Shown in pieces: positions 3,197 through 41,192 of a stretch of 64,000 bases of DNA. The notes under the pieces are model-generated. The model made no database searches and was not told the DNA's origin. It saw only the letters and a program-made list of their open reading frames with translations. Position 1 is the stretch's first letter, and every line of letters starts with the position of its first letter. A program made the position numbers and the translations under genes. This DNA comes from a virus (lineage: Duplodnaviria > Caudoviricetes), in IMG/VR virus record IMGVR_UViG_3300005662_000039, positions 4,188 to 68,187 of that record; one strand, given 5' to 3'.

Positions 3197-4189
3197 ATGA
3201 ACATAAAATTAGCAAGAATTCATAATAGAAATATGCTGATGCGTATTGCTCAGCAAGCAGCTACAGTTGCTGATGACGGTACTAAAACCGATACTACAGG
3301 CGGCAAAGACAATGGAGCCACCGCTCCTAGCGGTACTCCTACTCCTGCCCAGGCAAATAATACTGGAACTACCCAATTACAAAATAAAGCCCCTGCTGAT
3401 GGGTATGACACTTTTGTTCAAAGACAACAGCTTAATCAATTTAAAAAGGAGCCATGGCTTATTAATCTTTATTATGCATATCAGCCACAGCCAAGCACAA
3501 GGCTTGAGAATGATCTAGGGGGAGCTGTAAGAAGGGCCACTGGGACATCATCAGATAGAATAAGAGAGCATTTAGCAAATGCTCTCTCAAGATTAGAAAG
3601 TCCAAAAGTCGTATCCCTAAGAGATAAAGCCATTAATGAATATGCTAGATGGAATGAGCAAGTTACATCAGAAAAGTCGAGAATGCAGGGACAGGCTGAT
3701 GCCGCAAAAAGCCAGGATGCCGCCAAGGCACATGATGCATTGTTAGAATGGCAAGAAGGGACTGATGATCCTAGTTGGCTGTTTCTGACTAATGAGGTTT
3801 CAAAGTCAGCCCTGAAGCAAGCTCAAATGCAGATTGTCAGAGAAATCGAGAGAGAAGGAAGTGGTATTTTGAACTCAAATCCACTATCTTTCTCCGCAGT
3901 AGCAACTGATCCAATTTCTTATTTTAATAATTTAATGGAACAGGGATATGTAAGGAACATACAGAGCAAGGGAATAGCTCTTCCATTTGATGTTATAATG
4001 GGATGGGCTGAATCGCTAAATGAAGCCCAAAGGATGACCCCGCAGTTCCAGAGATTCCAAGGTTTAGTAGACCAAGCATCGGAGAGGCAGGGAGTCCAAA
4101 CCGATATTAGAGGCATAAGAAACCAAGGCATGATTGATAGAGCAAGAGCAGCAGAACAGAGAAGAATGAGACCTGGACGACCGCGCTAA
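3197..4189 (+). CDS. putative internal head protein with leader ending R-I-A-Q
   Basis: MNIKLARIHNRNMLMRIAQ|QAATV..., then a T/G/P-rich linker and a helical Q/E/R-rich body; followed by a terminator. Confidence 0.6.
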   Translation: MNIKLARIHNRNMLMRIAQQAATVADDGTKTDTTGGKDNGATAPSGTPTPAQANNTGTTQLQNKAPADGYDTFVQRQQLNQFKKEPWLINLYYAYQPQPSTRLENDLGGAVRRATGTSSDRIREHLANALSRLESPKVVSLRDKAINEYARWNEQVTSEKSRMQGQADAAKSQDAAKAHDALLEWQEGTDDPSWLFLTNEVSKSALKQAQMQIVREIEREGSGILNSNPLSFSAVATDPISYFNNLMEQGYVRNIQSKGIALPFDVIMGWAESLNEAQRMTPQFQRFQGLVDQASERQGVQTDIRGIRNQGMIDRARAAEQRRMRPGRPR

Positions 4190-31179: not shown

Positions 31180-31847
31180 TATTTAGCAATAGAGACTCTG
31201 GTAAAAGCAATATTTTTGGTGATGCATTTGATAAATACGATGCATCTTCAGCCGTTCCTAGCGACGATGTACTCGAGTCTATGCGAAGGAAAGCATGGAG
31301 CAGCTCTCCCTCAGGAGGGGAGGCATTGAGGAATACGATTTCCAGATCATCCGCTGCTACAGATGATTCCAGTGCTTCTGGGCGCGCATTCATTGGCATG
31401 AACTCAGCAAGAAGTATATTTTCTGATTCGACAAATAATGAAGGGAAAATCGATGCTAAGTCAGCATCTGATTCTTCAAGACAGTCAGAGAAAAATGCTA
31501 GAAAAGACCTAGAGCGCAAGCGAAGGGCAGAGTCGAATCCATCTGGAGAATTGGAAGCAAAGAATTTTTCTGCACACGCAAGCGAACATAAGCGCATGGA
31601 CGTTACGAAAAACGCAATTAGCATATTTGATAAAAATCCATTTGAAAGAATGGGATCCAATGAGGCAGAGTTGAAGAAGAATATAAAAGTAGCCAACGAA
31701 GACCTGCACGGATCTAGGCAACTGACATCAAAAGATGTTACTGAAAGAATATTTAATGGATTCGGTGCCGAAGTTAAAAAAGCAACACATCATCAGTCCG
31801 TGGTTGATAATTTGATAAATAAGTTGAAAGGTGATAAAAGTGAGTAA
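31176..31847 (+). CDS. hypothetical Ser-rich head-region protein
   Basis: 223-aa ORF, ATGA-coupled. Confidence 0.75.
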   Translation: MIFSNRDSGKSNIFGDAFDKYDASSAVPSDDVLESMRRKAWSSSPSGGEALRNTISRSSAATDDSSASGRAFIGMNSARSIFSDSTNNEGKIDAKSASDSSRQSEKNARKDLERKRRAESNPSGELEAKNFSAHASEHKRMDVTKNAISIFDKNPFERMGSNEAELKKNIKVANEDLHGSRQLTSKDVTERIFNGFGAEVKKATHHQSVVDNLINKLKGDKSE

Positions 31848-32838
31848 TACTTTTAATCTCAAGAAGTTCGCTCAGCAGTCAATTGCTCAAATGCCGAGAC
31901 AGGATGTAGTGGAGTCGCCAGCATCCGCATCTGCAAGCGATTCTCCATTATTAATGGATCAGGGATATGATAGCACAGTTTCTCAGGATTCTAATATAAC
32001 TTTACCTAAATTCCAAAATGGAAGTGAACTTTTCGAGTTTTTGGAGGCTTTTAGAACTCAGCAAGGAGATGCTGCTTCTGCTTATGATGCCGCATGGAAT
32101 GGTTTTTTTGCAAAGAGATTGGCTGGCAGTCCTAATGCTTCTTCTTTTGAAGATGGATTGAGAAGATTTTACGAGCAAAAGGACAATAGTAATGAGGCGA
32201 CAAAAGTCGCAATGGATATTTTTGATATATATTCTTCTATGATAGATCCCAATATTCAGCCCATCATGACAGAGACTAAGTCTGCTTCAGTGCTTATAGA
32301 TGAATTAATAGATTCTACAGATGCAATCATATTAAGCATGGCTAGGTCGATAGTAAAAAATGCTTCTAAATCTAGTTTTAATTTATCAAAATTTGCCCAG
32401 CATAAAACTCTAACTAATTCAGTTGTAATGACTGGTCCAAGCCAGGTGGGAATATCTCCATTTACTAGAGATTTACAGTCAAGCATGCATCTTGTAGAGC
32501 AGAACAAGGGATTTGGTCTGCGGATAGGTGATATATTGGATATAGATTTCGAGTCCATATGGCGTGGTAATATAATGGACAAGTACTATAGATCCACTAG
32601 GGATAAAGATGGCATATATGGTGGTGGCTATATAGACGACAAATTCGAGGTTAATCGATTTATTCCAGTTGGAAATAACTATCAGTTACCTCCAGGTGTA
32701 AGACACAGACCATACATCCCCGAGCACGGATTGACCGAAGCTCGTATAGAAGTTGCCAGAGGCAACAAAGATAAATTGAGTGACCCAAGAAAATTTGCCA
32801 AGATATATAATCACTCTCTATCTAAAAAAAAAGTATAA
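31840..32838 (+). CDS. head-region protein with two FNLxKFAQ motifs
   Basis: (M)SNTFNLKKFAQ|Q and SFNLSKFAQ|H; ends at an A9 run (SKKKV*). Start is GTG 31840 or 31831. Confidence 0.8.
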   Translation: MSNTFNLKKFAQQSIAQMPRQDVVESPASASASDSPLLMDQGYDSTVSQDSNITLPKFQNGSELFEFLEAFRTQQGDAASAYDAAWNGFFAKRLAGSPNASSFEDGLRRFYEQKDNSNEATKVAMDIFDIYSSMIDPNIQPIMTETKSASVLIDELIDSTDAIILSMARSIVKNASKSSFNLSKFAQHKTLTNSVVMTGPSQVGISPFTRDLQSSMHLVEQNKGFGLRIGDILDIDFESIWRGNIMDKYYRSTRDKDGIYGGGYIDDKFEVNRFIPVGNNYQLPPGVRHRPYIPEHGLTEARIEVARGNKDKLSDPRKFAKIYNHSLSKKKV

Positions 32839-33047
32839 CGACAAATAAATTTGCTAATCAAGCGTTATCTCCAGGAGATGCGCTTGATCGTGCATTTTCC
32901 GCACTAGATGGAGCAAAAGACAAGGGGCTTGGAAAGTATCGAATATGCCCTGTCTGCGGAAGTCACTGCAGTGCGGAAGCATCTGTATTCAAGTGTCATA
33001 ATTGCAATGCATCATTAGCAAATGTAATAATTCACTTTAAATCGTAA
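32826..33047 (+). CDS. start-less -1-frame extension encoding a zinc ribbon (frameshift product of the upstream gene)
   Basis: The -1 frame is open from just after TAA 32823-25 to TAA 33045-47: KKSITTNKFANQ...CPVCGSHC...FKCHNCNAS; no ATG/GTG/TTG anywhere in this frame. Confidence 0.6.
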   Translation, partial: KKSITTNKFANQALSPGDALDRAFSALDGAKDKGLGKYRICPVCGSHCSAEASVFKCHNCNASLANVIIHFKS

Positions 33048-33066: not shown

Positions 33067-35289
33067 ATGACCAAAAAAAATTCCAATAAAGAAGTCGAAT
33101 CAGGTAGTTCAGATAATTCATTAAGTATGAATAAGCTGGCATCAGGTGGTGCTGTGCATATGCCTATCACCAAGGCTGCTCAGTATGTTGGTGGATCAGC
33201 ATCTACCATATTTACTCAGCCAATGTTCTTTAGTCCCCTGCACACTCCTCAAAATTGGCAGATAGCAAGTAAGCGTCGAGAAGTCGCTCAGTGGGCGAGG
33301 TTTTATTACGAGAACGAGCCAAAAGCTGCTGCTGGAATAGATTTTTATGCTAATTTTCCCATGAACGGATTCAAGCTAGAATGCAAGGATCGTAAGGTTC
33401 TGGCATTTTATGAGCATTTGATAGATAAGTTGGATTTGGAAAACTGGCTTAGAAAAATAAGTCACGAATATTATCTTCTCGGAGACGTATTTGTCTTTAC
33501 CGAGGTGGAATGTCCTGTGTGTGGTGGTACTGGAGAAAGAGTCGATGGGATGATGTGCAATCATCCTGATGGAGTAATTAAGAGGATACTTATATTAAAT
33601 CCTGACTTTGTTGAAGTCCAAAGAACTCAGTTAGCAGATGAGCCTGCAGTTGTGCTTCTTCCAGATGATGATCTGAAGAGAGTGGTGTCGCAAAAGAAGC
33701 CTCTTGAAGTTTATAATAGAATACCAGAAAATGTTAAGCGAATGGTGATGGCTGGAGCTCCAATTCCTCTCTCTCCCAGATGTGTAAGTCATATAAAGCG
33801 CAAAGGTTCTCCATACGGTACTTATGGAGAATCATTGTTGAGAAGATTATTCACCATAATATCTTATAAAACAAAATTAATGACAGCGAATTGGATAGCA
33901 GCTGAAAGGCATATACTTCCAGTCAGGGTAGTAAAAGTTGGTACTGAAAATCGTCCAGCCAGTGAGGCAGATATTGCTGATGCACAATCCCAATTGGCAT
34001 CAGTTGCAAATGATCCGAATCTCACTATTGTTACTCATCATGCATTTGAGATGGACTTTGTTGGAGCAACGGGCAAGATTCATGATATGAGTACTCAAAT
34101 GGAGGCAATAGGCAAGGAGATGCTTGATGGTCTCATGTTGCCTCAGACATTGCTTAACGGCGAAATGGCAGGATATAGTTCAGCGGCTGTGGGCGTGGAA
34201 ACTTTGATAAGAAGGTTGGAGACATGGAGGATAGAGCTAGCATCTTGGGTTGAGAAGAATATATTTTTACCAGTTGCTCAAATGCAGGGCTTTGTTGACG
34301 TATCAAAGTCTAAACTTGTTGGTGAAACGGTTTATTTGTATCCAAGATTAAAATGGAACGACCTTAATCTTCGTGATAATACATCTAAATTGCAAAATCT
34401 AATGCAACTTCATGATAAGGGTCTTATTTCAACGCAAAAATTGCTTGAGGAATTTAATATCGATTATGATACTGAAATCAATAGGCTAAGAGAGGAACAG
34501 ATTACCGCTGGTAAGGGTGGTAATATAATGGGTGGCTCTGGTTCTGGAGGAGGTTCTTCTGCTGGCACTGAGATGCCAATGCCAACTGGTGGCAGTGGCC
34601 CTCCATTGGATATGGGAAGTCCCTTGCCTCCACCAGATATGGGAGCTCCAAGTGGTGGCGCTATGCCATCAATGGACTCTAGCGTATCTGCTCCGTCATT
34701 GACAGGAGAAGCTGCGCCTATGCCTGCTGCAGAAGGGGGAGCGCTTCAATCATCAGCAGCAGTAATGCCTGATAAAATATATAAAAAAGGCAAGGCTCCA
34801 AAGATTGAAAAAAAAGAGGAGCATAAGCCAGAGCCTCCTAAACAAATTTATTTAACTAAGCCAGAACAAAAACTATATTCTATTCTATCTAGAATGAGAG
34901 TTCCATATAGGCTTTTTGCTCAGTTTAAACAAGCAACTCCATATTCTACAAGTCCATACTTGCTTGACTTTGCCTATCCAGAAATCGGTGTTGACTTGGA
35001 GGCTGATGGTGACTTCTGGCATTCTGACCCAGAATCTATATATAGGGACAAAAATCGTGATGCTAATTTAGCCACAATGGGATGGCGTGTAATACGAATT
35101 AAAGAGTCAGCTCTTAATGGTGCGGTCGATGAGGTTGAGAAGATTATATCTGCTAACATTCGTGAAGCAGCATTGGAGAAAAAGCAACTTAGCAAAAAGG
35201 CTTCTATTCATAATTTCAGTATGATAGATAGTGAATTTTGCACTATCTACCTTCCTTCTGGAGAAATAGATGATAAAGATCGCAGCTAA
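33067..35289 (+). CDS. portal protein with C-terminal DUF559/Vsr-like nuclease domain
   Basis: Position between TerL and protease; FYYENEPKAAAGIDFYANFP, EYYLLGDVF, PYGTYGESLL, LTIVTHH, LKWNDLNL portal-type motifs; P/G/M/S linker; then KPEQKLY...LDFAYPEIGVDLEADGDFWH...DKNRDANLATMGWRVIRI. Confidence 0.85.
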   Translation: MTKKNSNKEVESGSSDNSLSMNKLASGGAVHMPITKAAQYVGGSASTIFTQPMFFSPLHTPQNWQIASKRREVAQWARFYYENEPKAAAGIDFYANFPMNGFKLECKDRKVLAFYEHLIDKLDLENWLRKISHEYYLLGDVFVFTEVECPVCGGTGERVDGMMCNHPDGVIKRILILNPDFVEVQRTQLADEPAVVLLPDDDLKRVVSQKKPLEVYNRIPENVKRMVMAGAPIPLSPRCVSHIKRKGSPYGTYGESLLRRLFTIISYKTKLMTANWIAAERHILPVRVVKVGTENRPASEADIADAQSQLASVANDPNLTIVTHHAFEMDFVGATGKIHDMSTQMEAIGKEMLDGLMLPQTLLNGEMAGYSSAAVGVETLIRRLETWRIELASWVEKNIFLPVAQMQGFVDVSKSKLVGETVYLYPRLKWNDLNLRDNTSKLQNLMQLHDKGLISTQKLLEEFNIDYDTEINRLREEQITAGKGGNIMGGSGSGGGSSAGTEMPMPTGGSGPPLDMGSPLPPPDMGAPSGGAMPSMDSSVSAPSLTGEAAPMPAAEGGALQSSAAVMPDKIYKKGKAPKIEKKEEHKPEPPKQIYLTKPEQKLYSILSRMRVPYRLFAQFKQATPYSTSPYLLDFAYPEIGVDLEADGDFWHSDPESIYRDKNRDANLATMGWRVIRIKESALNGAVDEVEKIISANIREAALEKKQLSKKASIHNFSMIDSEFCTIYLPSGEIDDKDRS

Positions 35290-35684: not shown

Positions 35685-38600
35685 ATGGAAGATACTATTG
35701 AAGAAAATGGTTTGGGTAAGAAGAGTTTCCGTTTTACATCTGATAGAGATGTATGTGCTCTTAATCTGCCCAATAATTGGCAAGAGATAAACACAGATAT
35801 TCTAACTAAAAATGCTTCTATTAAAGAAAACGGATCAATCTTCAATAAAAACGGTAAAGTAGTAGATTTGGGAGGCTTTGATCTTGATAAAGCCATTGAC
35901 GAAAATTCAGAGTGCCTATTCGTTAAGGTTTTTGCTATTAAGAAAGATGAAGTTAACGACAATGGTGATTTCTTCAACGAAAGTGAACTTAAGAAAGCTA
36001 CTAGCACATTCATTGGCGTTCCAGTTTTCGTTAATCATCAAAATGATGATATAGAAAAAGCCAGAGGCAAGGTTGTTCACGCATGGTATGATGATGAAAG
36101 AGGTGGCATATACACCATAAACATGGTCGATAAGGTTGCTTTCCCTCGTCTTGCTCGTGGGCTTGAGGCAGGCTATGTTACTGGCAGTTCGATGGGATGT
36201 TCTGTGAAGTATTCCTGCTGCAGTATATGTCATACCAGAGCTGCCACAGCTAAAGAATTTTGTAGCCACATTAAGGAAAGAAAAAAGAGACTCTTTAATG
36301 GGGAATGCGAATGCAAGTATCATGATCGTCCTAATGCTGGAGATGAGCCATGCCCATTATGTGACAAGAAAAAGGGCGAGAAAAAAGCCAATGTCTATAA
36401 AGACAAGCAAATATTTGAGCACAACTATGGGGTTAAATTTATAGAAGACAGTTTTGTAGTCAATCCTGCTTGTCATGATTGTCTCGTGTCCGACATACTT
36501 AATCCAAGTGAATTGCAGAAGAAAGTTGCTAATGTCACAGATATTATTAAGAAATACGCATCATCCATTGAGGGGCAAGAGCATAATGATGGATGCAGTG
36601 ATGGTTCTTGCTCTTTAAGAAAAGTTGCTGGGGTCAAGGAGATTGGAGATTTAAATGAGGCTATGAATAAAATGGAGAGAGTTGTTCGCTCTATGATGGC
36701 TCAAAAATCAAAAGTATCTTTGGAGTATGTTTCAGATATTATAAAAGTTTGCGCAGATGTTCAGAAAATAGCAGATGAATTAGTGGAAATGGGATATGCA
36801 AGACTTCCATCGCCTAGTGACGACCAGGTTGCTTTTGGAGTGGCGGAGCATGCCTCTCCCATTAATCCTCAAGGGTCTCCTGTGCAGACATCCACCCCTG
36901 CTATGCCATCTCCATCTGCTGCCATCCCTGCGAGTACTAAGCCTATCCAAACTGCAGTAGCTAAGCCTGGATCATTCTCGGCACAGACTACTGAGTACGG
37001 TGATGATATAGGTAGAGTGACAAAACCTTCTTTTATGCCAAGAAAATCAGAAAATATGGAGGATTTTGTTAAAATAAGTCATATGATACGCGATAGGATT
37101 GCTAATTTAGAAGAAAAATTAGCGGAGGGTATTGATTTGGGACTAAGTTCTGATTACAGGGCGACAGATGGCGATATCTCCATTGTTATCACTGCTGATG
37201 ATGATGGGGATATGTTTGTATCTGCGTTTAATGGCACAAGAATGACTAAATGGGCAAGCGTCGATACGCTTACTCAAGAATTACGGCAGTTGGTAATAAA
37301 CGACCCCACGGAGGCCGCCAGAAGGTTGTTAATTGCAGGTTACGGCGGCACCAACCGGAGCGAAGATACTATGAATAGCAATGAAAATAATGATAATCTG
37401 AAGATCGCTAAGAGAAAAGATGCACCAGATGTAACTACTCAGGCTCAGCTTGATGGATCTGGTCTTTTATATGGAGCACGCAAGGGCGATGCTCCAGACA
37501 AGACCACTCAATCCCAACTTGATGGGCACATAAAGAAGGACGAATCTAGTGCTTCTCCAGTAGAACGTCATCCATCTCCCACTGATACTGTGGAGTCTCA
37601 GTTGAATGGCAAGGGCGGATTCATGGTTCGTTGGAGCAACACTCCAGAAGCCATCACTGAAGGACAGTGGACTGCTGCTAACAGGGAAGTATATGCCAAG
37701 TTGCCTTCGGATTGGTCTGAAGGCGCAAAAGAATCTCAACTTGAAGCCCTTCGAAAGTCTCACAAGTGGGTTGATCCATCGGAAACCACAGAGGGGCAAC
37801 TTGCCAAGAATGCCTCATCTTCTGCAGTTGATTTGATCAAAGCTGCATCAGATGGCATATCAACGGCTATAGGCTTCTATGGTCTAACTGCTGATCAGGT
37901 TAAGAAAGCATTCGCTGTTGCTGGTAAGAACATGGAGAAGACTGCTTTCAGCGTTCTTTACAACGCTGCTCCATGGCTGGTTGAGGACAGGATTAAGAAT
38001 GTTTCTTTGAAGCGTTTCCTTTCCAAGGAAGCAAGTTCTGCTGATCTCGGTATAGAGCCAATGGACGCTCTCGTTGCTGGCTTGGCTGATCATGTTGGCA
38101 ATCTTCCTGTTGATCAGGTAATAAAAGCAGCATCTTGGATATCTAAAGAGCAAGTTGCCTTCCAGACTGCTATCGACAACGCTGAAAAATTCGCCTCAGT
38201 AGAGGAGGATGCCAGCGTAGATGAGGATGATATTTTCCGTAAGGCCTTTCGCGAGTCTAACTTTCCAGAAGATGGACTTTTCAAGATATGCGCGACGATA
38301 GAAGATGACATTAACGTAGATCCTTCCGCTGGTGATGCATTTGTGCGTGCTGTTCATAAGTTTGCATCTGCTCAGGTTTCTGAGGCTTTCGGAGTCTCAG
38401 AACTTGCTCCTATGTCAATAGATATAGACGATTCCAACGGTATCGTGGAAGCAACTTTGAAGATTGCATCCATGCTTGATGCGGAGGAATTAAAGCATTA
38501 CAACGAATGGCTTTCTTCCGCTGAAAAGTCAGAAAAGAATGCCTCCTCCTCTTTGGAAGACAGGAGAAGCAAGCGCGCTTCTGTCCTTAATAAAATTGAC

Positions 38601-41192
38601 GAGTTAGAGAAGAAAGCGCAGATGATGGGCGGACAAATGCCAGCTAACCTTAATCCTGCTGGAATGGGAGCTGGTATGAATCTTCCTGGCGGTAGTGTTC
38701 CTCCAGGAACTCCTGGAGTGGAGGCTCTTACAACTGGTCCTGGTATTCCTGGTCCAGGTGGAGCTCCTTCGCCAGCAGCAGATCCGTTGGCTGGTTTGGG
38801 TGGTGACGATGCTTCGGAATCTGCCGAAGATGCTCCAGAAACAGCGAATCCTCCCATGGCAGTCTGTGTTGTTTGCGGAAATAATGATGTTGATGTTTCA
38901 GGTGGAAAATCAAAGTGCAAGGGTCCTGGATGTGGTAGTGGATTTAGCCTGAAGGTCGTCCCCGCATCTTTACTTGATGGTGCTTCTGAGGCGGAACCAA
39001 GTTCTGAAGATTCTGAAGCATCTGTAGAGAAAGGTCTGGGAGGATCTGGAGCAGCGCTGCCACCATCTGGTGCAATGCCCCCAGTTGCTGCCAGTGCCAA
39101 GTTGGATGTTGACGCACTCAAGAAGGTGGCTTCCACTATTGAATTCGGATCAGTAAGTCCTATTACTGGCACAAGGAACACCGTCAAGTTGGGAGATGGT
39201 ACTTGGGCATGTCTTGACAGTGGGCAGAAGTACATAGTTCGTGTTGCAGCAAGTGCAAATGATCCTAAGTCAATATGGGCTCAATGGGAATGGGTTCCAC
39301 AGGTCAAGAAGGCATCATGCTCCAGTTGTTCTCGTAAGAAGCAGGCTTTTGTGAATGCGCTTTCAGAAATGGGAATTTCCGAATCTCAGTTTGATTCAAT
39401 GCCAGTTAACAAAAAGGCAGAAACCATTATTGCTGTTCATCAGTCTGGAAAATATTCCGAGATTAAGCAAGCATCATTGGATTCAGATGTGAAATATTCC
39501 ATCAAGCAGGCCTTTACCGTTCATGGAGAATTCCCCATGAATGATTGCATGGAGAAACTTGCTCGACGTTATGGAGAGAATGCTCTCGCGCTCAGTGGCC
39601 CATGTGAAGGTAGAAATCTTGCTGATTGCGTTTGCAATGGTCTTGCTAAGGAGAAGGTGTATACCACAGGATTGGCCAGCAAGATTGCTTCCGTATGGTC
39701 TGACAAGGATGCGATGGATAATTGCCTTGAGGATCTCATTCGTTCTGGAATGACTCTTGGCAAGGCTGCTTACGCATGCGATGGAATGAAGACTAAGTAC
39801 GCTTCAGTAGAGGAGCTTTTTGCTGAAGCCATGTCTGGAGACGAATTCGGTGGTGATGACACTGATGGATCTGATGAAGGTAATGACGATGATAATTCAG
39901 ATCCATTCGATTCTGACGGCGATGATGTTGATGTAAAACATGTTGATCCAAATGACATGGAGATAGATCTCAAGCTTCACGCTGATCCAGAGATGCTTGA
40001 TGCGATAGAAAAAGCTATATCTGAGATTATGTCCAATGTTCCATCTTCAGATGGAGCAGAAGACAATGATGTTGAATTTGAGATAGCTGATGACGATGCA
40101 GACATTGAAGAAGGTGATGTTGATGTTGATACATCAGGTGATGATTCGTCCGATTCCGACGAAAAAGCTGAAAAATTAGAAATTAACAAAGGAAAAGACG
40201 GACAAGACATGAATATTGTAAATGATACCATGGAAAAAGAATCCGACATGACAAAATTAGCACCAAAGGCAGCAGAGTCCAATGACGAGCGCATTCAGCG
40301 TGAAGCAATGGCATTGCGCCGTGGTAGAGTAGTTGGCGTCGGAAAACTTGAACTTGATGTGTCTAAGATAGCCAATTCCCTCAATAAGAGTTCAAGTGAA
40401 AAAGAAGTAAAGCAGGAAAATCCACAGGACAACGCAGGAAAGATATCTGGCGAGAATGTCCCCATGGAAGATGCCGATGCTCCTACTTCTGGCGAGGGAA
40501 TGAAGGATATGGATAAGCCTTCTATCCCAGTTACTGGAGACTCTGAGATGGGCAATGCTGTGACTGGTCGCGTGGCATCTTTTGAGTCCGCACTTGCAAA
40601 GATGGCAAAAGACATGAAGTTGCAGCGAGGCAATGTCCAAGACGATAAGGACATTGGAAATTACAGCAAGGACGGCATTGAGATGACATCTCCCAATGTT
40701 CCATCAAAGGGCGGTGCCGATCTTGATACCCCAAGCATACCTGCTGGAGATGGTGCCTTTGATGGCGAGTCTGAAGCAGGATACACAGCAGAAAAGCAAA
40801 ATCACATGACTGGCGGAGACGCTGGATCTGGTGGAGATACGAAGACCAGTGGTGTTCGTGAGGAACTTGCGCTCAAGATTGCAGCAAGAATGGTTGAGGA
40901 GAAGGTTATTTCAGCCATGCAAATGCCTGCAAAGATAAACGAGCTATCGAGATACCAGGTATCTCAGCTTCAGGATCTTGAGAAAGTTATGTTTAGGAAC
41001 GCCTCTAAAGGTCTAAAGACAGCTTCTGTATCAGGTGGTTTGGAGAAACCTCTTCTGATAGCAGATTCCAGCAGCGAGAAGAATGTATCTTCTGATCTTA
41101 AGTCAAAGATATCTTCTCTCTTCCGTCTACACAAGCAGAACGAAATGGCTGATCAGACGGAAAATGCCAAGTTACGTGACGTTTTCAGATAA
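35685..41192 (+). CDS. prohead (capsid maturation) protease fused to a very large scaffold/core region (1835 aa)
   Basis: N-terminal domain DFF...ELKKA..TFIGVPVFVNH...GKV...GSSMGC.V....CSIC (His and Ser candidates of HK97/herpes-fold proteases); acidic disordered and helical C-terminal parts; directly upstream of the decoration protein and MCP. Confidence 0.8.
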   Translation: MEDTIEENGLGKKSFRFTSDRDVCALNLPNNWQEINTDILTKNASIKENGSIFNKNGKVVDLGGFDLDKAIDENSECLFVKVFAIKKDEVNDNGDFFNESELKKATSTFIGVPVFVNHQNDDIEKARGKVVHAWYDDERGGIYTINMVDKVAFPRLARGLEAGYVTGSSMGCSVKYSCCSICHTRAATAKEFCSHIKERKKRLFNGECECKYHDRPNAGDEPCPLCDKKKGEKKANVYKDKQIFEHNYGVKFIEDSFVVNPACHDCLVSDILNPSELQKKVANVTDIIKKYASSIEGQEHNDGCSDGSCSLRKVAGVKEIGDLNEAMNKMERVVRSMMAQKSKVSLEYVSDIIKVCADVQKIADELVEMGYARLPSPSDDQVAFGVAEHASPINPQGSPVQTSTPAMPSPSAAIPASTKPIQTAVAKPGSFSAQTTEYGDDIGRVTKPSFMPRKSENMEDFVKISHMIRDRIANLEEKLAEGIDLGLSSDYRATDGDISIVITADDDGDMFVSAFNGTRMTKWASVDTLTQELRQLVINDPTEAARRLLIAGYGGTNRSEDTMNSNENNDNLKIAKRKDAPDVTTQAQLDGSGLLYGARKGDAPDKTTQSQLDGHIKKDESSASPVERHPSPTDTVESQLNGKGGFMVRWSNTPEAITEGQWTAANREVYAKLPSDWSEGAKESQLEALRKSHKWVDPSETTEGQLAKNASSSAVDLIKAASDGISTAIGFYGLTADQVKKAFAVAGKNMEKTAFSVLYNAAPWLVEDRIKNVSLKRFLSKEASSADLGIEPMDALVAGLADHVGNLPVDQVIKAASWISKEQVAFQTAIDNAEKFASVEEDASVDEDDIFRKAFRESNFPEDGLFKICATIEDDINVDPSAGDAFVRAVHKFASAQVSEAFGVSELAPMSIDIDDSNGIVEATLKIASMLDAEELKHYNEWLSSAEKSEKNASSSLEDRRSKRASVLNKIDELEKKAQMMGGQMPANLNPAGMGAGMNLPGGSVPPGTPGVEALTTGPGIPGPGGAPSPAADPLAGLGGDDASESAEDAPETANPPMAVCVVCGNNDVDVSGGKSKCKGPGCGSGFSLKVVPASLLDGASEAEPSSEDSEASVEKGLGGSGAALPPSGAMPPVAASAKLDVDALKKVASTIEFGSVSPITGTRNTVKLGDGTWACLDSGQKYIVRVAASANDPKSIWAQWEWVPQVKKASCSSCSRKKQAFVNALSEMGISESQFDSMPVNKKAETIIAVHQSGKYSEIKQASLDSDVKYSIKQAFTVHGEFPMNDCMEKLARRYGENALALSGPCEGRNLADCVCNGLAKEKVYTTGLASKIASVWSDKDAMDNCLEDLIRSGMTLGKAAYACDGMKTKYASVEELFAEAMSGDEFGGDDTDGSDEGNDDDNSDPFDSDGDDVDVKHVDPNDMEIDLKLHADPEMLDAIEKAISEIMSNVPSSDGAEDNDVEFEIADDDADIEEGDVDVDTSGDDSSDSDEKAEKLEINKGKDGQDMNIVNDTMEKESDMTKLAPKAAESNDERIQREAMALRRGRVVGVGKLELDVSKIANSLNKSSSEKEVKQENPQDNAGKISGENVPMEDADAPTSGEGMKDMDKPSIPVTGDSEMGNAVTGRVASFESALAKMAKDMKLQRGNVQDDKDIGNYSKDGIEMTSPNVPSKGGADLDTPSIPAGDGAFDGESEAGYTAEKQNHMTGGDAGSGGDTKTSGVREELALKIAARMVEEKVISAMQMPAKINELSRYQVSQLQDLEKVMFRNASKGLKTASVSGGLEKPLLIADSSSEKNVSSDLKSKISSLFRLHKQNEMADQTENAKLRDVFR
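37427..37803 (+). repeat. six (T/V/I)(T)E/Q-x-QL peptide repeats in the protease/scaffold
   Basis: DVTTQAQL, DKTTQSQL, DTVESQL, AITEGQW, AKESQL, ETTEGQL. Confidence 0.7.

Follow-up and report, generated by a model that had tools for sequence, protein, structure and literature searches.

Recoding in tailed phages is textbook material for the tail chaperones and for a few capsid proteins. The locus described here would add a third family of morphogenetic genes in which a two-product design is deeply conserved; this family spans at least 359 protein clusters at 50% identity from uncultured large phages. It lies in a 64,000-nucleotide stretch, called the window below, of the IMG/VR virus record IMGVR_UViG_3300005662_000039 (Caudoviricetes; positions 4,188 to 68,187 of that record). 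There, a head-module gene that we call the body gene ends in a run of nine adenines (A9), and an open reading frame (ORF) in the -1 frame, encoding a zinc ribbon, follows it and reaches almost to the portal gene. That the A9 tract is a maintained recoding site, whatever the mechanism behind it, we regard as highly probable from the comparative sequence data. The complete statement, in which the site produces two isoforms and slippage by RNA polymerase (RNAP) is the mechanism, is one toward which we lean without much assurance. The signal is unusually clean: runs of nine or more A are kept at one site and avoided elsewhere in these genes, and all three frame configurations are found with this tract. 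Gene callers truncate the gene, losing the zinc-ribbon module in most genomes.

Which described systems come closest? Programmed transcriptional slippage on an A/T run of 9 to 10 nucleotides is known from dnaX of Thermus thermophilus, where it accounts for the tau and gamma products, and from dnaX of the Chlorobi (A10) (PMC5009743; PMC3711429). The phage locus resembles dnaX in its uninterrupted coding run of at least nine A, its two predicted products in a set ratio, and its independence of any RNA structure. It differs from the Thermus gene in direction, since there the long product is the 0-frame one and slippage truncates it, whereas here slippage would usually extend the protein. It also belongs to an unrelated gene family, sits in a phage head module, and has its slippage predicted from sequence. 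The Shigella mxiE system is similar as well: an A/T run on which slippage occurs gives rise to a product that is extended (in mxiE) or truncated, tuning the stoichiometry of a nanomachine, and slippage of this type can also affect the adjacent downstream gene (PMC5009743). That system, however, serves bacterial secretion rather than a virus and has no protease-site architecture.

Among phages, the lambda G/GT tail chaperone is likewise a two-product morphogenesis gene that is deeply conserved despite low similarity. The direction of its counterparts differs by lineage (-1, -2, or +1; PMC5009743), much as the frame here is -1, +1, or in-frame. The lambda case nevertheless relies on a ribosomal heptamer such as G_GGA_AAG, has no run of nine or more, and concerns a tail gene with unrelated proteins. 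A recoded, minority C-terminal extension of a head protein is found in T7 (10A/10B), T3, Lactobacillus phage A2, and the Listeria phages A118, A500, and PSA (PMC5009743). In those phages the recoded protein is the major capsid protein, and its extension, exposed on the surface, comes from a ribosomal shift at a short motif, whereas the present gene is a noncapsid gene beside the portal and its extension is probably cut off. The site belongs to none of the dnaX, mxiE, or G/GT families; the mechanism proposed for it is of a known kind.

Head-protein processing provides a further comparison. The T4 prohead protease gp21 processes internal head proteins that carry capsid-targeting leaders, and the herpesvirus assemblin cleaves between Ala and Ser. 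As with the substrates of these proteases, several unrelated head-module proteins here carry short motifs at their N termini and in linkers, alongside a protease-led, scaffold-like protein. The motif itself is different, (F-N-L)-x-K-x-A-Q/S/N, and its cleavage is a prediction.

A 2016 review of recoding lists phage cases just for tail chaperones, capsid proteins, and tail proteins, and polymerase slippage for RNA viruses alone (PMC5009743). Scaffold or prohead proteins go unmentioned in it; its sole match to "head protein" is a reference title, on the major head protein of phage A2. The phage G paper reports a tail-chaperone frameshift as its sole one. The literature searched contains no description of this gene family and no instance of programmed transcriptional slippage in tailed-phage morphogenesis.

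The A tract and its comparative record

The relevant features of the window, all on the plus strand, are as follows.

31840..32838, plus strand: body gene in the 0 frame, with a GTG start behind a good Shine-Dalgarno motif; 332 amino acids, stop at 32836-38
32823..32825, plus strand: TAA of the -1 frame abutting the run, made of the T before the run and its first two A
32824..32832, plus strand: A9 slip tract, the codons of Lys329-331, with an in-phase A_AAA_AAA heptamer at 32826-32832
32832..33047, plus strand: -1 extension, 71 codons added after Lys331, stop at 33045-47
32857..32888, plus strand: RNA hairpin of 8 + 5 bp, beginning 24 nucleotides after the run
32946..33005, plus strand: four-Cys zinc ribbon CPVC ... 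CHNC, in the -1 frame translation
33067..35289, plus strand: portal gene (phrog_16240 at 1e-45), starting 19 nucleotides past the stop of the extension

The 3' end of the body gene (32821-32838) reads TCT AAA AAA AAA GTA TAA. After the TAA at 32823-25, the -1 frame stays open for 73 sense codons (32826..33044) before its stop at 33045-47, and it contains no ATG, GTG, or TTG. Its product reads NKFANQ, then ALDRAFS, then CPVC-x12-CHNC. The 0 and -1 frames are both open only inside the run; because of the -1 TAA at its edge, a productive shift is confined to the A run itself. The predicted long isoform comprises residues 1-331 plus 71 more, 402 amino acids in all, and the extension occupies the gap between the body gene and the portal ORF. 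Every one of the elements that the initial annotation had read from the window (the sequence and coordinates of the A9 run, the open -1 frame lacking a start, NKFANQ, CPVC...CHNC, and the position before the portal) is borne out.

By itself, the run means little. It is the sole A/T run of nine or more in the window, and about 1.2 runs of nine or more A are expected from the base composition of 64 kb, so the significance lies not in its presence but in its conservation. How far does that conservation reach? A set of 5.8 billion proteins holds 45 near-length relatives of the body, and a profile search retrieves the 359 clusters, 331 of them with E <= 1e-10. All 45 near-length relatives end in KKK-x-stop; in those that were aligned, with identities down to 36%, one to three residues separate the KKK from the stop. 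Loci were fetched from IMG/VR (80) and JGI metagenomes (80), and their DNA was analyzed by script. Five of the 160 junctions could not be scored: three lie on contigs that end too soon (L121, L130, and L151), L132 shows no A run within the DNA retrieved, and L079 is a degenerate copy. Together with the window, the scorable loci reduce to 126 distinct junction sequences.

The A tract is uninterrupted in all 126. It is A9 in 37, A10 in 78, A11 in 9, A12 in 1, and A13 in 1, and in none is it shorter than nine. Relative to the body, the extension is offset by -1 at 105 junctions, by +1 at 7, and not at all at 14. Run and out-of-frame ribbon ORF are thus kept together across over 100 separate lineages whose proteins can be as little as about 30% identical, and the out-of-frame state predominates in every clade. 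All 16 members of the window's own clade have A9 with a -1 extension. Six of the seven +1 cases form a coherent clade (L099, L100, L101, L105, L106, and L110) with A10 and a short, ribbon-only extension resembling that of the window. The arrangement that the initial annotation had suggested looking for in related genomes, a conserved KKK and stop with CxxC..CxxC in the -1 frame, is therefore present in 105 of 126 junctions, and conservation over more than 100 lineages lends strong support to its proposal of two head-protein isoforms, with and without a zinc ribbon, made via slippage. On this comparative evidence, we consider the programmed slip site genuine and its conservation deep; the gene family that carries it is new, and its products and their processing are predicted.

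Could the purity of the tract simply reflect codon usage? Lys codons away from the junction in the same genes are AAA in 71% of cases. At other Lys-Lys-Lys sites, a pure A9 occurs in 5 of 127, against about 45 expected from that usage, whereas the junction is pure in 126 of 126. These genes evidently avoid slippery tracts everywhere except at the junction.

The in-frame alleles deserve separate comment. Homologues that encode the ribbon simply in frame had been named beforehand as an observation that would speak against recoding, and they do exist, in 14 of 126 junctions. They nevertheless retain the tract, as A10 or A11, and they are scattered on the tree: 9 changes account for 11 loci, and clustering is no greater than with shuffled labels. 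In-frame alleles that carry the same tract and are dispersed in this way point to a tract of labile length rather than to an ordinary domain boundary. Within the 150 best cluster representatives, a KKK lies no more than 12 residues from the stop in 98, and some 33 to 39 are in-frame long forms, though we assume that cluster representatives may favor the longest member.

A few loci depart from the common layout. Some relatives have A10 twice, with a first tract that follows the body in frame, then an inserted module, then a second tract at which the frame shifts, and in others additional in-frame A9 runs lie within the extension (L065:3792-4153 and L153:1905-2298; also L022, L026, L041, and L072). 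To judge from these sequences, more than two products may be made by relatives with multiple tracts. The degenerate copy (L079:3540-4260) changes frame about 100 nucleotides before the junction without a homopolymer, has a tract of only A7, and meets an in-frame stop close to where the protein normally ends; the explanation is either poor assembly or gene decay.

The zinc-ribbon extension

Extensions in all clades contain the four-Cys ribbon, two CxxC pairs with a short spacer, which is conserved among homologues. In an alignment of 11 natural in-frame homologues, C437, C440, C452, and C455 are invariant. Pfam recognizes the ribbon only weakly, in four members (Zn_ribbon_RanBP in two at 4e-4, PknG_rubred in one, and Zn_ribbon_6 in one), and the ribbon peptide of the window has no Pfam match. 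In most clades the extension runs 140 to 250 residues further, to a conserved end reading ...LAIDG or ...HLGL, while in the window's clade it terminates just past the ribbon; no C-terminal tail of the LAIDG type was found elsewhere in the window. The natural in-frame fusions read through to the same C-terminal motif. Together, the invariant Cys residues and the natural fusions argue that the extension is genuinely protein coding. A search of the 5.8 billion proteins gave no in-frame long form of the ribbon in the window, which is weak evidence. In each of the 81 loci checked, the portal directly follows the extension.

How the frame may be changed

Poly-A tracts are slipped on by three processes, carried out by RNA polymerase, the ribosome, and DNA polymerase (PMC3711429). 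Which of them operates here? A tract of about nine A/T corresponds to the length of the RNA-DNA hybrid (9 to 10 bp) and to the threshold of efficient slippage by bacterial RNAP (PMC5009743; PMC3711429). Three aspects of the family favor the polymerase. (i) The minimum tract length of nine is that hybrid and threshold length. (ii) The occurrence of -1 and +1 configurations on the same tract suits RNAP slippage, which is indifferent to direction, better than a strict -1 ribosomal shift. (iii) There is neither a conserved 3' structure nor a 5' Shine-Dalgarno-like motif. Three sequence hallmarks of transcriptional slippage are seen: a run of at least nine, kept pure despite the option of AAG, and a conserved alternative-frame ORF that is reached via the run only.

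The scheme we propose would work as follows. Most expression would give the 332-amino-acid protein, which ends at the stop at 32836-38. RNAP would slip on the homopolymer in a minority of events and add one A to the mRNA, and normal translation would then enter the -1 frame inside the run to produce the 402-amino-acid isoform with its zinc-ribbon tail. The long isoform would be a polyprotein whose body carries the ribbon module into the prohead, where the prohead protease would cut the ribbon off. The frequency of slippage would in this way set the number of ribbon modules loaded per head. This last idea, a dosing valve in which direction-indifferent RNAP slippage fuses the ribbon to a prohead-targeted carrier and the protease frees it in the head, is offered tentatively, and we would not be surprised to see it fail. 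If true, programmed transcriptional slippage would have a role in the morphogenesis of tailed phages. The slip event might also tune translation of the portal, because only shifted ribosomes terminate 19 nucleotides before the portal start.

Does RNA structure contribute? The hairpin at 32857-32888 that the initial annotation had pointed out is real and stable: it appears in the minimum-free-energy fold of a 121-nucleotide context (-31.6 kcal/mol, z = -4.4), and none of 200 shuffled sequences was as stable. Its role as a slip stimulator did not hold up. Stimulators of canonical -1 frameshifts have spacers of 5 to 9 nucleotides, whereas this hairpin begins 24 nucleotides from the run. Close relatives fold hairpins nearby with the arms shifted by several bases, so that the position is not conserved, and the alifold consensus of the region is weak (-5.7 kcal/mol). 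Nor is there a family-wide counterpart: over 61 distinct loci, the mean z is -0.7 for the 70 nucleotides downstream, -0.2 for the 60 nucleotides upstream, and -0.8 for an in-gene control. A Shine-Dalgarno-like tetramer precedes the run in just 7 of 126 junctions, Rfam has no credible match at the site, and the hairpin, with no T tract after it, is not terminator-like. We therefore rejected it as a conserved stimulator; it is probably a clade-local feature and no part of the slip mechanism. The codons for ALDRA(F/Y)S are partly self-complementary (GCGCT.GATCG.GC; 32880-32900 in the window, and L001-L009) and seed hairpins at slightly differing positions in each relative.

Several observations weigh against polymerase slippage with two isoforms, and some of them are what a ribosomal mechanism would lead one to expect. 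Both the mechanism and the products are inferred from sequence alone, and the body is without a recognizable family or fold in the searches run. Every tract holds an in-phase A_AAA_AAA or A_AAA_AAG heptamer. The base after the tract is G in 114 of 126 junctions, and the runs of -1 junctions start at codon position 1 (67) or 3 (38) but never at 2, a bias that is not predicted by pure polymerase slippage. In-frame junctions, finally, account for 11% of those on contigs and for roughly one in four representatives of the 50% clusters, a frequency indicating that the tract also changes length in DNA, over short evolutionary distances. The same two products could come from a ribosomal shift, either by tandem -1 slippage of tRNA-Lys on A_AAA_AAA or by sliding on poly(A), and we count this as a realistic contender, if not the one we expect. 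In addition to the G after the run and the unused codon position 2, it is supported by the in-phase heptamer in the window (32826-32832) and in all -1 loci, and by 27 junctions in which an A9 starting from codon position 3 creates a classic A_AAA_AAG, often with a stop directly after. Both heptamers are listed as frameshift heptamers (PMC3711429), and ribosomes have been reported to slide on iterated AAA codons (PMC4363877). Yet seven A are enough for tandem tRNA slippage, and no junction has fewer than nine. The stimulators of a classical -1 shift, a downstream structure or an upstream Shine-Dalgarno-like element, are not conserved, the hairpin of the window lies too far from the run, and direction is not uniform, in that an entire six-member clade would have to shift by +1 at its tract. 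The preferences in the flanking bases (which include, before the tract, T in 98 and C in 27 of 126 junctions) and the bias in codon start are not explained by the mechanism we propose.

The remaining explanations dispense with recoding altogether. In a phase-variable homopolymer, replication slippage would create subpopulations in and out of frame, with one form per genome. We think this unlikely as the whole explanation, even though tract length does differ between related genomes and switches the frame: lengths span 9 to 13, in-frame alleles with one more A arise sporadically (the 9 changes in 11 loci), and related pairs differ (L028 with A10 versus L043 with A11; L066-L080 with A9 versus L078 with A10). 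Poly-A/T tracts are also slippery for DNA polymerase (PMC3711429). Against it, the out-of-frame form dominates in every clade, including 16 of 16 members in that of the window, and contigs with identical flanks agree in run length (0 of 21 groups discordant, and no differing pair among near-identical flanks), with the proviso that consensus contigs cannot reveal minority run-length alleles. RNAP slippage at such tracts is, moreover, orders of magnitude more common than replication slippage, so that transcripts would be heterogeneous even under phase variation. Very improbable, in our judgment, is an artifact or decay, in which the true genome has A10 and a plain gene for 402 amino acids, or the ribbon ORF is a dead remnant. 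Homopolymers are error prone on some platforms and in-frame relatives exist, but about 90% of more than 100 independent assemblies would have to be wrong, and nearly always by the same single base. The exact 332-amino-acid protein of the window is present on 7 contigs; run length is uniform within each of the 21 flank-identical groups, which comprise 51 loci, several of them from different samples; out-of-frame junctions are strongly skewed (105 at -1 versus 7 at +1, six of these from one clade); and constraint is seen at the protein level, in the invariant Cys residues, while A9 is avoided elsewhere in the same genes. Assembly error as a general explanation was rejected on the strength of the junction conservation, that avoidance, and the flank-identical groups. 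Least credible of all is an independent small gene, with its own, possibly noncanonical, start or with termination-reinitiation. In some relatives the ORF does contain an ATG, GTG, or TTG. The ORF of the window has no start codon, though, and 19 of 61 distinct relatives have none before the ribbon; candidate starts in the others fall at unconserved positions, only 7 with even a weak Shine-Dalgarno-like motif. In most loci the A tract is also the very point at which the ORF becomes open, and natural fusions exist. Separate initiation, which the initial annotation had named as a possible objection, was rejected because the starts are missing or unconserved and the Shine-Dalgarno-like motifs weak. 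The natural series from A9 to A13, in -1, +1, and in-frame configurations, offers material with which polymerase, ribosomal, and replication slippage could be separated experimentally.

The body protein and its neighbors

What kind of protein does the slip site extend? The body is an uncharacterized head-module protein. Pfam and PHROGs have no family for it, whether queried with the window protein or with the 11 fused homologues. GenBank phages (INPHARED) gave no DNA match, and no tblastn match to the window protein or to a natural fusion. A PDB profile search found at best an LXG domain (E = 0.0075), and the best Protein Atlas score, 0.75, is under the useful range. A first AF2 model, built from 23 sequences, was poor (pLDDT 55); a second, from 95 sequences, reached a pLDDT of 69. 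The second model shows disorder over roughly the first 53 residues, a four-helix N domain predicted with confidence at residues 60-135, and a conserved, mixed C domain of moderate confidence at residues ~200-320. Foldseek with this model had no match in PDB or BFVD. A wide VIA structure search returned generic helical-bundle matches alone (Z ~6, residues 48-139); it tested mainly those residues and barely covered the C domain, and we make no claim of a new fold.

Short Lys-x-Ala motifs stand out in this otherwise anonymous protein and just past its slip site.

31852..31875, plus strand: FNLKKFAQ motif (residues 5-12), candidate prohead-protease site or propeptide end
32377..32400, plus strand: FNLSKFAQ motif (residues 180-187) in the interdomain linker, candidate cleavage site
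32847..32858, plus strand: K-F-A-N motif, candidate protease site, seven residues past the KKK junction

Both FNLxKxAQ copies are among the best-conserved columns in the alignment of relatives: F5, N6, K9, and Q12 are invariant or nearly so, and N181, K184, A186, and Q187 are conserved. FNLKKFAQ lies in a low-pLDDT segment and FNLSKFAQ in a low-pLDDT linker (180-196); overall, three of the four K.A[QSN] motifs of the body gene fall in linkers of low AF2 confidence. Four copies compare with 0.38 expected, a number reached by 1 of 500 shuffles. The motif is enriched as well in the neighboring 1835-amino-acid protein (window 35685-41192), with 22 copies versus 2.6 expected (0 of 500 shuffles), and the portal has 3. 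The major capsid protein lacks the motif, as do five other genes from outside the head-protein block that were tested; another two from outside that block carry one or two copies, within chance. The 1835-amino-acid protein also begins with a head-maturation-protease domain (phrog_18299 at 4e-12, phrog_2774 at 2e-28). Given the enrichment, the protease domain next door, and the location of the motifs in linkers, we read the body gene as encoding a protease-processed head polyprotein, a reading that we infer from motif statistics and context only.

The extension fits the same picture. Of 72 distinct extensions, 19 have K.A[QSN] within their first 20 residues, compared with 4 of 410 control windows, and all members of the window's clade carry it after the junction. 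The position of this Lys-x-Ala motif suggests that the ribbon would be cut off inside the prohead; in the window, predicted cleavage after K-F-A would free a candidate ribbon peptide of 63 residues.

Some in-frame long forms carry additional modules. In L035, L043, L048, L055, and L060, 100 to 350 extra residues stand between the body and the KKK junction, and each inserted module is bounded by motifs of the K-x-A-Q type. L043 also has an older site resembling a junction, in which the A tract is interrupted and the peptide is KKPK. Judged by their sequences, the protein in these in-frame long forms behaves as a modular polyprotein.

No tRNA genes were found in the window. The portal gene contains two A8 runs, at 33073-33080 (codons 3-5, just after the ATG) and at 34808-34815, one base below the length kept at the slip site. 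Its protein (33067-35289) has, after the portal core, a C-terminal domain resembling DUF559 and HNH endonucleases (residues ~597-725), with matches to PF04480 at 5e-6 and phrog_559 at 5e-8.

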